Shown: one piece after another, positions 18,001 to 24,000 of the stretch
Position numbering within the stretch: the first letter of the stretch is position 1
Layout: each line of letters starts with the position of its first letter
IMG/VR virus record: IMGVR_UViG_2537562192_000014
Coordinates: 1-25,514 of that record
Strand: one strand, 5' to 3'
DNA from: a virus
Taxonomy: Duplodnaviria > Heunggongvirae > Uroviricota > Caudoviricetes
Length of the DNA stretch: 25,514 bases
Position numbers: made by a program

Positions 18001-21000
18001 CTCGTTAAGCCTGTAACTTCCCCTACCATCCCCGACATCCCGTCGGGGTTTTCATATCTGGAGACAAAAATTTGAAACAGATCGCTTTCTACAGGCGTTC
18101 TGGAAGGCCCGGTGCCTTCCGTGGGTTAAAAGAACGCGTCACTTGGATGATTCAGTCTCGTGGTCGTCCTGTTACTGGCAGTGAAATAGCAGAGAAATTT
18201 GGTGTTTCACTTTGCGAGTTCAACAAGGTAGCTCGCGGCCTGACAAAGGGCAGTAAGGTTGTGAAAATAAAGGCTTCAGAACCATTCACCACAGACACCG
18301 GAATCGTTGATCGCTTTTTCTCCCTCGAATCAAATCCTCGTCGTGACACACCTCGCTCACGCAATGCCGTTCCTCCATTCAGTCGCAGAAGCCGTGAACA
18401 CGCAGCAAAAAACTGTCGCGAGGAATACGTGCAAAAGGCCGAACGCCGTCGCCGACTGATTAAAGCAGGACTTTACATTGATGAGTTTGAAAACGCGCTA
18501 TGACGAAAAAATACACCCTCATTTACGCAGATCCCCCCTGGACATTCCGCGACAAAGCAACCGATGGTCAACGCGGTGCAAGTTTTAAATATCCGGTCAT
18601 GAGTCTTCTGGATATCTGCCGCCTCCCGGTATGGGAACTGGCAGCCGAGAATTGCCTGTTGGCTATGTGGTGGGTGCCTACACAACCACTTGAAGCATTG
18701 AAGGTTGTAGAAGCGTGGGGCTTTCGTCTGGTGACGATGAAAGGATTAACCTGGAACAAATGCGGGAAAAGACAGACCGACAAGCTGGTCATGGGTATGG
18801 GTAGCACCACTCGCGCTAACAGCGAAGACTGCCTTTTTGCAGTGAAAGGAAATCTGCCCGAACGCATTAACGCCGGAATAATCCAGTCATTCACTGCACC
18901 ACGCCTTGATCACTCCCGCAAGCCGGATATGGCTCGAGAAAAACTTGTGCAACTTCTTGGCGATGTTCCCCGGATAGAACTGTTCGCCCGCCACACCTCG
19001 CATGGATTTGATGTATGGGGTAACCAATGCGGCACACCATCCATTGAGATGGTTCCGGGTATTGTTAAATTTCTGGAGAAAACCAATGAGCGAAAAAACG
19101 ACGTTGACAAAGGCATCACCAGTTGAATTAAGGCAGTGTCTGGAAATCGCAAATCAACTTGCCAGAAGTGGAATACGATTTGTTCCAATCCCGATTACAG
19201 CAGATGCAGAACTTCATCTGTTTGGTGAAATTCTTTCCCGAAAGCTGGATGAACTGGAAAAGCTGGTAGAAGAAGCTGACACCTCACCAACCGTATAACA
19301 GCCCCACCGACATTAAAATATCAGGAGAAAAAAATGAACGCAGTGCTCACAGAATTGAACAAATTAGGAAAAGCATCAGCCGAAAGTATTTCTAAAGGTC
19401 TCAATATTGATTTGAATGACGTTATTGACACTCTATGGAAGTTAAAAAACCAGGGGGTAGTAACTGTAAAAAATGGCATCTGGCAGGCAGTTGCAAGGGA
19501 AGTGGACAAAAAACCAAATATCGCCTCAGTGCAGCCAGTGCAGCCAGTGCAGCCAGTGCAGCCAGTGCAGCCAGTGCAGCCAGTGCAGCACAACATTATA
19601 GGCGACCTGCTACGTAAATCACAGAAAGAAGCGCGCCGCGCCGGGCGGAAACAGAAACGATGGGAGGGTGCATGTAAGGCGTTGCAAGAACTGAATAAAT
19701 ACCGTGACTTGATCAACGAATTGTCAGAGTGAGCGAATCACAGAGAGAATATTTTGAGAAACACCCCGCGTACATTAATATTGTTTTTCCTTTCTCTAAT
19801 GACGGGCGGTATCCTGTTATTCGCAGGAACAACATTATTTATTTTTGTTGCCCGGCTAACTGCGAGGATAATGACATGAAAATCACATTTGAAAGTTACG
19901 GTTTAACAGCAAGTGTGGTTATCTCCAGCTCTATATTCGAAAGCCGCAAACATCAGCATATCGTTGATGCAGTGAAACTCAAAGCCCCGGAAGTTACCGT
20001 CACAACACATGGACTTTTCAGGATACGAACGACGTTGACTACAACACACCTCTCGGCATGCCGTGTTTATGATATGGCACTCAAGGAATACAACCAGTGT
20101 TCGTCCTGATCCAGCGCGGGCAGTCTTTCGTTGATGCCAACAACTATCCGGTAGAAATATGCAAGGTAACTCTGACTCAGGTGATCTACCGAAGGCTCGA
20201 CGGCAGAACCAGAGCCACTTCAATTAGTGCATTTAATGAAGAATTTGAGCGAATCGAGCACAACGAACTGCATATGATTAAAGCGGAAATTGAGAAGGAA
20301 AAGCATATTGCCAGCCTTCGAAAAAGGCGCCGTACATCAATCAACTGACAACCGCCTTCGGGCGGTTTTTTCTTACACATGCAGAGGCAACTTATGCGCG
20401 AGTTAGTAAACCAACATAACCATGGCATTCAGCCAGTCATCACACCTGTTGTACAGATAAATGCGAATGAATGGGTAACACTGGAGCTTTTAATGGCTGT
20501 AACAGGCCTAAGAAAAGGAACAATATTACGCGCCAGGGACAGTGCGTGGATGAACGGCAGAGAATATAAACAAATTGCCCCCGACGGAACGCCAAAGAAA
20601 AACAGCGAATGTCTCTATCATCTTCCTACCATCAACACTTGGATCAAAAACCAACCCTTACCATCTCAGGATGTTTAATTCTTGTCCATAAGAGTATAAC
20701 CTGAGCGTGCTCTTGGACGCAGGAGGAACAATGGCGAATTCAGCCTATCCAGCCGGCGTTGAAAATCACGGAGGAAAACTCCGAATAACGTTTAAGTACA
20801 GGGGTAAACGAGTGCGCGAAAATCTTCGCGTGCCCGATACTCCGAAAAACAGAAAGATCGCTGGTGAGTTAAGGGCTTCTGTCTGCTTTGCAATCAGAAC
20901 GGGAACGTTTGATTATGCCGAGCGATTCCCTGACTCACCTAACCTGAAGCTATTTGGCCTGGTAAAAAAAGATATCACCGTCGGTGAACTGGCACAGAAA

Positions 21001-24000
21001 TGGCTTACTCTGAAAGCAATGGAAATCAGTAGTAACGCCTTAAATCGTTATCAATCAGTGATGAAAAATATGCTACCGAGACTTGGTCCTGGCAGGCTGG
21101 CGTCATCGATTACAAAAGAAGATCTGCTGTTTATCAGGAAAGATTTACTGACCGGGGAAAAGGGAAGCAGGAAAACCAGCACGTCCCAAAAAGGAAGAAC
21201 CGTACCCACAGTGAACTATTACATGACAACAACAGCCGGAATGTTCAGCTTTGCCGCCGAAAACGGGTATCTGGAGAAAAACCCGTTTAATTCAATAACA
21301 CCGCTGAGGAAATCAAAACCAGTGCCGGATCCACTGACCAGAGATGAGTTTAGCCGTCTCATTGATGCCTGCCATCATCAACAGACCAAAAACCTCTGGA
21401 CAGTGGCTGTTTTTACAGGGATGCGACACGGTGAAATTGCCGCACTTGCATGGGAGGATATCGACCTGAAAGCTGGCACGATAACAGTGCGAAGAAATTT
21501 TACAAAAATAGGTGATTTTACGCTACCAAAGACTGACGCAGGCACTAACCGGGTTATACATCTTCTGGCACCAGCAATTGAAGCACTTAAAAACCAGGCG
21601 ATGCTTACTCGTCTTAGCAGGCAGCATCAGATCACTGTTCAATTACGCGAGTACGGAAGAACAATTTTGCACGAGTGCACTTTTGTTTTCTGTCCGCAAA
21701 TCGTTCGCAAGAATCACAAGGCTGGTATTAACTACGCGGTAAGCTCCATCGGAGCGACATGGGATTCAGCAATAAAAAGAGCGGGTATCCGATCCCGTAA
21801 AGCGTATCAGTCACGCCATACCTATGCGTGCTGGGCTTTATCTGCCGGAGCAAACCCGACATTTATTGCATCACAGATGGGGCACTCCAGCGCCAGCATG
21901 GTCTACAATGTTTATGGTGCATGGATGCCTGAGTGCAGCGTGACTCAAGTTGCCATGTTGAATAATGTCCTTAATGCCCGTGCCCCAGACGTGCCCCAAA
22001 GTGACCAGGAGGATGAAATAAAATTATATTTTTCAAAATGATAAACCATATCCTTAGACATGTTGAAACGATGGCACGCGCAGTCGCTGAGGGTGCAAGC
22101 AAAGTCGATGGCGCAGAAGTTGTCGTTAAGCGTGTACCGGAAACCATGCCGCCGCAATTATTTGAAAAAGCAGGCGGTAAAACGCAAACTGCACCGGTTG
22201 CAACCCCGCAAGAACTGGCCGATTACGACGCCATTATTTTTGGTACACCTACCCGCTTTGGCAACATGTCCGGTCAAATGCGTACCTTCCTCGACCAGAC
22301 GGGCGGCCTGTGGGCTTCCGGCGCACTATACGGAAAACTGGCGAGCGTCTTTAGTTCCACCGGTACTGGCGGCGGTCAGGAACAAACTATTACTTCAACC
22401 TGGACGACCCTTGCGCATCACGGCATGGTAATTGTCCCCATTGGCTACGCAGCGCAGGAATTATTTGACGTTACACAGGTTCGCGGCGGTACGCCGTACG
22501 GCGCAACCACCATCGCAGGCGGTGACGGCTCACGCCAGCCAAGCCAGGAAGAACTGTCTATTGCTCGTTATCAAGGGGAATATGTCGCAGGTCTGGCAGT
22601 TAAACTTAACGGCTAATCTTCAACAGGAGGATACGCATGCCAACTCAAGAAGCGAAAGCTCATCACGTCGGTGAATGGGCATCTCTGCGCAATACGTCGC
22701 CGGAAATAGCCGAGGCCATTTTCGAAGTCGCCGGGTACGACGAAAAAATGGCGGAAAAGATTTGGGAAGAAGGTAGCGATGAAGTGTTAGTCAAAGCCTT
22801 TGCTAAGACCGATAAAGATTCGCTTTTTTGGGGCGAACAGACCATCGAACGTAAAAACGTTTAACCAGCGACTCCCCCGCTTCTCGCGGGGGAGTTTTCT
22901 GTTATTTCACCGCTTCATTCAACACGCTATCAAATTTATCCATCGGGCAGAAACCGTTGGCATCTATCGGGCAACCGCTTAATTCCAGCGTCACACGCTG
23001 AGCAGGTGCCTGCAGGGTTAACGCATCGGCATTACGTAACTGTTCCGCACTCTGATACACATATTCAATTTTCATCAAATCGCGATTGGCTTTGCTGTCA
23101 TGCCAACGCTGGAAAACGATTTTGCCGCCAATCGGCGTGCGTTCGTTCTGGTCATGCAACTGATACGGTTTGAAATCCAGCGCCGTTAACAGAGAGGCAA
23201 TGTTGGAGTCGTGCCCAACCAACACTGTAATTTTCGGTGCGCTGGTGCGATCGGTGACCAGAGCTTTGTCGATATAACTGACCAGCGGTTTCGCAACATT
23301 GCGCGCCACTTCCGGTGAGGTAAACAGGCTGTCCTGGTAGCCGTTTTTAAGCTTCGACAACACCTTCCACTGCTTGTCAGATTTGATTTCTCCCCAGGCC
23401 ACCTGATCCATCGGAAAACCTTCGTAATATTGCAAAGTAAACGCATCTACCAGCGAGTTGCCGACTTTCAGCTGCCCGGAAACACCTGGTTCTTGTTGAT
23501 ACTTGGCGCTAAAGGTATTTTTGCCATCCACCAGCGAACACTGTTGTTTCTCTTTACAGGCAGGGGAATCTTTATAGTTAACGATTTTTTCCAGTAGCTG
23601 GTAGCTGTCGGTAAGCTGGAGTTTGCTGAGCTCTTTCTCCATTGCCGCCACCGCCTGTTCACTGAATGCGGCGGAATCATCGGTGATCACCGGGTTAAAG
23701 GTTGGGTCCATAGTGCCCATTTTTTCCTGGTGATGCACAGGAATATCACACCCCGGGAATGCGCCGGTAATAAAGAACTGTGCGGTCGCAACGGTACGTT
23801 GCAGACTATTGGCATAGGCATAAACGGTGTCCGGCGGCGGGCATTCCCCCGATTTCACCATCCCCTGCTGTGCCAGCCATTCACGCATGTAATGGCCCAT
23901 ATACACTTCGAGCACGCCACCTTTGGTGGTGAGTTGCCCACCGGGGACGTCCCATTCGGGCCATTTATTCGGCGTAGACTGCTCCAGCACACTGCCATTG

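Follow-up and report, generated by a model that had tools for sequence, protein, structure and literature searches.

A chimeric wrbA reading frame at the right end of a Shiga toxin prophage as a probable by-product of integration

The window analysed here, the whole of a 25,514-nucleotide (nt) stretch from IMG/VR virus record IMGVR_UViG_2537562192_000014, holds the early half of a lambdoid Shiga toxin (Stx) prophage followed by the host genes wrbA'-yccJ-agp and a yccE gene interrupted by IS1. We consider it probable that the prophage end lying in wrbA is the attR site of a lambdoid Stx prophage with a 933W/VT2-Sakai-type integration module (terminator, xis, int and attP), and that the hybrid wrbA open reading frame (ORF) found there, which starts on phage DNA, is an accidental by-product of where the attachment core lies. 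This account is built on the observed anatomy of the junction, on its attachment sites, on the loss of part of the WrbA domain and of a Shine-Dalgarno (SD) sequence, and on expression data from related lysogens.

In the favored account, a lambda-like integrase, binding core and arm sites, would have recombined attP with attB inside the heptamer TTGAAAC, at codons 15-17 of wrbA, leaving the wrbA promoter, ribosome-binding site and first 15 codons at attL, the far end of the prophage. The 21 nt that separate the int stop codon from the core, within the P arm of attP, would by chance be free of stop codons in the wrbA frame and include an ATG overlapping the int TGA. The resulting chimera, deprived of strand beta-1, of most of the phosphate loop that binds flavin mononucleotide (FMN) and of an SD sequence, would owe its transcription to read-through from int, to other promoters or to both, and would not accumulate as a functional protein, so that wrbA would be effectively knocked out in lysogens and restored upon excision, with the downstream yccJ gene remaining expressed. 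On induction, early-left transcription would read through the hairpin that precedes xis, and int would add a low constitutive supply of its own.

Parts of this picture are already known, wrbA having been a textbook insertion site of Stx phages ever since 933W and VT2-Sakai were sequenced. GenBank record AP000422 annotates the attachment site and describes wrbA as "divided by the insertion of prophage", the EDL933 annotation of Z1504 reads "amino terminal fragment of WrbA", and several Stx-phage papers mention wrbA merely as an insertion site.

Identity and distribution of the junction

The genome nearest to the window is that of STEC2018-553, in which a Stx1a operon lies just past the window's left end. 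From position 20349 through the prophage end into host wrbA the DNA of the window shows 98.7% identity to VT2-Sakai, and that of 20349-22062 shows 99.0% identity to 933W; its Xis and Int are, respectively, 100% and 99.1% identical to the VT2-Sakai proteins. The early region, in turn, resembles O104:H4-type phages and differs from 933W and VT2-Sakai. The cI product is a LexA-family repressor 50% identical to VT2-Sakai CI, the replication genes encode a DEAD/DEAH helicase and a DUF7146 protein instead of O and P, and no homologues of N, cII or cIII were found with PHROG and Pfam searches of the small early ORFs or with tblastn using the VT2-Sakai proteins. The junction is present in 217 of 5426 complete Escherichia coli genomes, and its copies are nearly invariant (~99-100% identical), with a single R7S variant. 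Out of 225 matches to the junction and the end of int, four fall on plasmid-typed records, and a few genomes carry two copies, which could represent excised circular phage DNA, misassemblies or double lysogens.

Attachment sites and the integration module

The int gene (20731-22041, + strand) encodes a tyrosine recombinase (PF00589, E = 2e-17, residues 202-395) with an N-terminal arm-binding domain (PF12167, E = 8e-26); it comprises 436 amino acids (aa) from the ATG at 20731, which is preceded by a strong SD sequence (-10.3 kcal/mol), or 444 aa from an alternative GTG at 20707. Its stop codon (TGA, 22039-22041) overlaps an ATG at 22038-22040, forming the ATGA at 22038-22041 (+ strand) that the earlier note had pointed out, an overlap evident in the sequence and the ORF list and also present as a 4-nt overlap between RefSeq coding sequences.

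The alignment with an uninterrupted wrbA locus that the earlier note had recommended for defining the core was carried out as a four-way comparison, with the window as attR, K-12 wrbA as attB, the other prophage end in NCCP15648 as attL, and attP reconstructed from attL and attR. The core common to all four sites is the 7-bp TTGAAAC at 22063-22069, corresponding to codons 15-17 of native wrbA and annotated as a 7-bp attachment site or insertion duplication in AP000422, LC645446 and AP004402. Identity extends imperfectly into the flanks (attB GACATaTTGAAACgATG versus attP GACATgTTGAAACcATG), through GACAT at 22057-22061 and ATG at 22071-22073, so that attP and attB share 15 of 17 bases; similarity to uninterrupted wrbA starts at 22057. 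The reconstructed attP matches phages phi315, phi367 and phi191 at 100% identity over 230 nt. A k-mer repeat analysis of this attP revealed candidate arm-type Int sites on both arms. In the P arm, three copies of the GTGCCCCA / TGCCCCAA motif fall within the final 190 nt of int (21878-21999), namely GTGCCCCA at 21980-21987 and 21991-21998 and an inverted copy at 21878-21885; the P' arm, at attL, has four copies of this motif (TGCCCCAA / GCCCCAAA). These repeats are the predicted counterparts of the arm-type sites expected of such an integrase and, because they lie there, the 3' end of int and the 21 nt between its stop codon and the core belong to attP. A tyrosine recombinase domain, an arm-binding domain matched by arm repeats, a short shared core and a xis gene beside int are thus found together, as in a lambda-type module. 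No sib-like strong hairpin or terminator was found in the P' arm of attP, where there are only weak candidates at about +215.

The attL site of NCCP15648, some 60 kilobases (kb) away, keeps the wrbA promoter region, the GAGGAG SD sequence and codons 1-17, and now encodes a 20-aa peptide. The native 5' end of wrbA is hence lost from the junction, as anticipated in the earlier note, and is not reconstituted there. A promoter-like site on the minus strand (22038-22066, TCAACA-17-TATCAT, 9 of 12 matches) spans both the core and the ATGA and faces the 3' end of int; its -35 element is built from the core, so it would occur in attP as well as in attR, and it may be a chance match.

The chimeric reading frame and the loss of the WrbA N-terminus

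The reading frame opened by the overlapping ATG extends from 22038 to 22616 (+ strand) and encodes 192 aa, confirming that the wrbA frame runs from a phage-supplied start codon into host DNA. The phage contributes codons 1-8 plus the initial base of codon 9, and the remainder is host wrbA: the nine phage-coded residues, MINHILRHV, are followed by ETMARAV..., identical to WrbA from residue 16, and the 15 N-terminal residues of the 198-aa native K-12 protein are thereby exchanged for nine unrelated ones. Solved structures of E. coli WrbA in the PDB align with the chimera from chain residue 11-12 to the end.

The chimera ATG lacks an SD sequence: its best duplex with the 3' end of 16S rRNA scores +1.6 kcal/mol, versus -8.5 kcal/mol for native wrbA and -10.3 kcal/mol for int and yccJ, and the nearest AGGAGG lies 23 nt upstream. 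Of the features sought for a translationally coupled gene pair, the stop/start overlap is present, and neither a ribosome-binding site for the downstream frame nor, among the proteins listed for strain 86-24, a product was found. In the attP context, the same phage ATG opens an ORF of only 14 codons. When the 90 nt of phage DNA to the left of the core were shuffled 100,000 times, 32.5% of the shuffles provided an in-frame start before any stop codon (ATG in 18%); since chance alone yields such a frame in about one case in three, the chimeric ORF requires no selective explanation.

What the chimera loses can be read from its domain matches. The Pfam FMN_red match begins at profile position 17, as compared with position 2 in native WrbA, so that positions 2-16 are missing, and the Flavodoxin_1 score falls from 40.7 bits in the native protein to 22.9 bits, under the cut-off of 25; a complete flavodoxin-like domain was not found in the chimera. 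In the flavodoxin-like fold, the missing N-terminal positions form the central first strand and the phosphate-binding loop, and the profile positions bear out the suggestion, made in the earlier note, that these are the elements replaced. N-terminal FMN contacts are not stated in the WrbA enzymology literature searched, and the argument for their loss is based on the Pfam profile positions together with general knowledge of the fold. From this evidence we infer that the chimera is very probably dead and wrbA inactive in lysogens.

Transcription and translation of the chimeric region

Gene-level RNA sequencing (RNA-seq) values for EDL933 in 11 conditions (Landstorfer 2014), given as reads per kilobase per million (RPKM), range from 17 to 1347 for the chimera (Z1423), from 17 to 432 for int (Z1424), from 0 to 488 for xis (Z1425) and from 91 to 6854 for yccJ (Z1422). 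The absence of a hybrid transcript, which would have counted against the reading of the earlier note, is therefore not what is found, as RNA from the chimeric region is present, both by RNA-seq and by array, in EDL933, the most closely related lysogen that has been studied. Its abundance correlates with that of yccJ (Spearman 0.97) and int (0.89), and only at 0.48 with that of the attL fragment (Z1504). The latter behaves as expected for a gene under the native wrbA promoter, being 93-fold dependent on RpoS in an EDL933 array study in which Z1423 was highly expressed (log2 12.9) and only 2.9-fold dependent (Dong and Schellhorn 2009).

Downstream of the chimera, yccJ (22637-22864, + strand), the second gene of the host wrbA-yccJ operon, has a strong SD sequence of its own (-10.3 kcal/mol); cut off from the wrbA promoter by the prophage, it is nonetheless transcribed and seen as protein in lysogens. 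The operon is closed by a host intrinsic terminator (22870-22905, + strand; fold -24.9 kcal/mol, z = -6.3), which would form the 3' end of any transcript reading through from int. In the EDL933 lysogen, wrbA'-yccJ is strongly and stress-responsively transcribed, with yccJ reaching RPKM 6854 at 15 °C, even though the sigma-S wrbA promoter sits at attL.

A shotgun proteome of strain 86-24, which has exactly the window's junction, covers stationary-phase and in vivo samples (Pieper 2011) and includes Agp (gi 15800923) and YccJ (15800924); the chimera (15800925, Z1423), Int (15800926) and any "WrbA" are absent among the proteins listed. This pattern fits a poorly translated or unstable chimera, in a manner that is suggestive rather than conclusive. 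The supplements of an O104:H4 RpoS study and of an EDL933 translatome study contain no wrbA entries. A WrbA protein of "O157:H7" is visible as a two-dimensional gel spot, but the strain concerned is 933D, which is stx2-negative, and for that reason the spot serves only as a contrast.

The origin of the chimera RNA deserves separate consideration. RPKM values for the chimera exceed those for int in 9 of the 11 conditions (1.2 to 4 times), and those for yccJ are about twice those for the chimera in 6 of the 11, ratios that suggest additional promoters. There is thus a substantial chance, although short of an even one, that wrbA' RNA comes mostly from promoters downstream of the int start, either a host one within wrbA, serving yccJ, or one directed outward from the P arm of the phage, with the 5' end of the chimera hardly transcribed and never translated. 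The tighter correlation of the chimera with yccJ than with int, its residual RpoS dependence on the array and the detection of YccJ without the chimera all agree with this view, and candidate elements exist in GTGACC-18-TATATT (22001-22030) and in a sigma-S-like -10 element, CTATAC (22326-22331). Both candidates, however, are weak consensus matches of a kind that occurs at chance-level frequency, and the proposal concerns the origin of the transcripts only, so it is compatible with the chimera being a by-product of integration.

Several points weigh against the by-product account. Because the chimera RNA exceeds that of int in most conditions, read-through from int cannot be its sole source, and gene-level RPKM values resolve neither reads that cross the int/wrbA' junction nor transcript starts. 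The RNA and protein evidence was obtained entirely in 933W-type lysogens (EDL933 and 86-24), and the window phage differs in its early region, including the lack of recognizable N, cII and cIII. Absence from one shotgun proteome, among the proteins listed, is a weak negative. Lastly, the non-function of the chimera is deduced from knowledge of the fold, and a single-sequence AlphaFold2 run yielded no usable model (predicted local distance difference test score, 34.5).

The hairpin upstream of xis

The xis gene (20394-20678, + strand; PF06806, E = 1.1e-30; PHROG 539; DUF1233-type) encodes an excisionase of 94 aa, or 99 aa from an alternative ATG at 20379, and has a GAGG SD sequence (-5.8 kcal/mol). 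Directly upstream of it, the intrinsic terminator reported in the earlier note is indeed present as a hairpin at 20350-20373 (+ strand) with a 7-bp stem (20350-20356 / 20361-20367, five GC pairs), a UUCG loop and a run of six T (20368-20373), located 26 nt ahead of the xis ATG. It is unique within the window, and its folding energy (-11.9 kcal/mol, z = -3.9 versus shuffles) is more than chance would give. The hairpin lies 2 nt past the stop codon of a DUF4222-family gene (20097-20348, + strand; 83 aa; PF13973, E = 1.5e-15; also called by the Prokaryotic Genome Annotation Pipeline, PGAP, in related genomes), the last accessory gene of the early-left region. Similarity to VT2-Sakai and 933W begins at 20349, and an argW-integrating Stx2 prophage matches the window over 1-20368 only, with an unrelated integration module beyond the equivalent of 20368. 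Judged by its predicted structure, the hairpin is a genuine intrinsic terminator placed where recombination has joined the early-left genes to the integration module.

This location admits a simpler view, which we hold to be possible at somewhat lower odds than transcription from internal promoters, namely that the hairpin is the mere 3' end of an upstream accessory ("moron"-like) cassette and a recombination linker, with no specific control over xis and int. Its proximity to the DUF4222 stop codon is what such a view predicts, as are the promoter-like sites at 19721-19782 ahead of the last two small genes, the same hairpin following DUF4222 in the argW-type prophage, and a second plus-strand terminator that closes the Ant cassette at 18030-18048. 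In 933W and VT2-Sakai, however, xis-int keeps the hairpin next to an upstream gene (H0073/L0063) that is unrelated and stops 40 nt earlier; the version found there has a UGAU loop and a G-U in place of one A-U pair (-13.0 kcal/mol). The hairpin therefore travels with both of its sides.

The earlier note had proposed that the terminator insulates xis-int from upstream early-left transcription, leaving both genes to rely on their own promoter. For xis, the EDL933 data do not support insulation, since its RNA is nearly equal to that of the upstream gene, Z1426, and co-varies with it: RPKM ratios of xis to Z1426 fall between 0.5 and 1.4 in 10 of the 11 conditions (Spearman 0.95), and antibiotic induction raises both together (log fold changes of 4.7 and 4.1). 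No drop in RNA past the hairpin was thus seen at gene level across the 11 conditions, with the qualification that these concern the 933W homologue, in a phage that has N and nutL. In the window phage, which has no N homologue, early-left transcription may likewise read through on induction. For int, the proposal fares better, and int appears to have its own supply. The int/xis ratio is 1.6-5.9 in 9 of the 10 uninduced conditions and even greater in faeces, in which xis is zero, and int rises less than xis on induction, as would be expected of a separate int promoter. The plus strand shows no promoter-like site between 19782 and 22001, and the interval between hairpin and xis offers no room for one; a lambda-type CII site (TTGC-N6-TTGC) was likewise not found in xis or int, window-wide counts of the motif being at chance level. 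It is plausible that the hairpin keeps stray transcription from accessory promoters out of xis in the repressed prophage.

Taken as a whole, the reading in which the chimera is translated from int messenger RNA by termination-reinitiation coupling, and the hairpin insulates xis and int on promoters of their own, seems unlikely to us. It can draw on the ATGA overlap, on the co-variation of int and chimera RNA, on the transcription of int in all uninduced EDL933 conditions, on a canonical terminator that 933W preserves structurally with a different loop, and on the lack of a recognizable N in the window phage. It must contend, on the other hand, with the lack of an SD sequence within reach of the chimera ATG, with the missing chimera and Int in the 86-24 list, with a hairpin-xis gap too short for a promoter and the lack of any promoter-like site on the plus strand between 19782 and 22001, and with an EDL933 xis that follows its upstream gene one-to-one and is co-induced with it. 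Of the suggestion that the wrbA remnant is translated from int transcripts, what stands is that transcripts of the region exist; coupling is merely possible, given the missing SD sequence, the chimera going unlisted in 86-24 and an ORF that chance would supply about once in three junctions.

A more ambitious proposal, to which we give very little credence, is that the P arm carries an outward promoter (the candidate at 22001-22030, with a start at ~22037) generating a leaderless or coupled message from the SD-less ATG at 22038, through which lysogens would deliberately make an N-terminally replaced WrbA' whose role is altered and does not involve FMN, and would hold yccJ on under stress independently of the sigma-S wrbA promoter. 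Were this true, the phage would rewire the wrbA-yccJ operon rather than just break it. Least credible of all is selection of the phage end to rebuild a working or usefully altered wrbA, as in the phages that integrate in icd or tRNA genes: the open frame, its ATG and overlap with the int stop codon, the conservation of the junction in 217 genomes and the acceptance of the chimera as wrbA by PGAP can be cited for it, but MINHILRHV is unlike the native N-terminus beyond one His, attP and attB are identical at just the 15 of 17 bases around the core, the fold is incomplete, the start lacks an SD sequence and such an ORF is readily produced by chance, conservation is explained by the function of attP (arm sites and core) among copies that, being all ~99% identical, afford no comparative power within E. 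coli, and Int relatives at 71% identity or less, from other genera, never adjoin wrbA (none of 73 such loci, in a scan of one genome per species, has wrbA nearby).

Consequences for annotation

The importance of the chimera as a by-product of integration is small in biological terms, and its main value is as a warning on annotation. PGAP and RefSeq name the chimera "wrbA NAD(P)H:quinone oxidoreductase" (WP_000607018/19/21) with no pseudogene flag, and an intact-wrbA label is found in every junction genome with listed annotation (40 of the 217); lysogens will therefore be scored as wrbA-positive in gene-presence tables, pangenomes and expression studies. A case in point is the "wrbA G25A, Val9Ile" change reported in EDL933 clones after loss of 933W and treated as an attB mutation (bioRxiv 2022.08.08.503262). 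G25A is the exact attR-to-attB change at window position 22062, hybrid nucleotide 25, where GACATG|TTGAAAC becomes GACATA|TTGAAAC; the reported mutation is thus most likely a mapping artefact of a chimeric reference annotation, as precise excision yields the same change.

Other features of the window

Between cI and the presumed leftward promoter, the position of rexAB in lambda, the window carries two cargo items on opposite strands (7236-7831, - strand, and 6037-6948, + strand), comprising an opposite-strand HicA/HicB toxin-antitoxin pair and a gene for an SDH-family, Clp-fold serine protease; the same site holds an Eco57I-like methylase and a BsuBI/PstI-family restriction enzyme in NCCP15648 and O104:H4-type phages. 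Rfam identifies isrK (8473-8548, 58.7 bits) and C4 antisense RNA (8573-8660, 77.1 bits) in a stretch that immediately precedes a Rha/anti-repressor gene (8577-9359) and runs into its start, and 8473-9359 looks like a P1/P7 c4-ant type immunity module in the early-left region of a Stx phage. A second anti-repressor gene, Ant (17348-18016), belongs to a self-contained cassette at 17126-18048 that also features a promoter-like site (17126-17155, 10 of 12 matches), an RNA of the sRNA-Xcc1 family (17247-17336, 65.4 bits) and an intrinsic terminator (18030-18048). Further downstream, seven copies of a perfect 9-bp tandem repeat, CAGTGCAGC (19527-19589), encode (QPV)n in a DUF1627 gene, the annotated length of which is 354, 372 or 399 nt among near-identical prophages and may reflect copy-number variation. 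At the host end, IS1 (25122-25514, with the inverted repeat GGTAATGACTCCAACTTATTGAT from 25122) interrupts yccE downstream of agp, as it does in STEC2018-553; the yccE gene of NCCP15648 is frameshifted and free of IS1.

Comparison with known systems

In active lysogeny, exemplified by the Listeria phage phi10403S in comK, a host gene split by a prophage is restored on excision. The wrbA junction shares this property, as loss of 933W by precise excision restores attB; unlike active lysogeny, it gives no evidence of regulated, non-lytic excision acting as a switch. Phage 21 and e14, in icd, and phages that integrate in tRNA genes bring with them a homologous version of the gene end they displace, and the gene product is thereby preserved. 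With these the window has in common integration within a gene and a phage contribution of coding sequence; unlike them, it shares with its target just the 7-bp core (15 of 17 bases with the flanks), and the phage-coded N-terminus is unrelated and leaves the product six residues shorter, so the target is not rebuilt.

The organization of the module is in many respects that of phage lambda, with an arm-binding Int, xis upstream, int directed toward attP, a 7-bp overlap, arm repeats on both arms and an int 3' context that changes between phage and prophage. It departs from lambda in that attP overlaps the coding end of int, with the int stop codon 21 nt from the core, in that attB lies inside a host gene and not in an intergenic position, and in that there is a terminator right before xis, no CII site found in xis or int and no sib-like strong hairpin in the P' arm. 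The window phage is set apart from 933W (EDL933) and VT2-Sakai/Sp5 (Sakai) by its lack of N, cII and cIII homologues, by a different gene upstream of xis and by a UUCG instead of a UGAU loop in the hairpin; with both it shares the xis-int-attP module, the TTGAAAC core, the ATGA junction and the MINHILRHV chimera.

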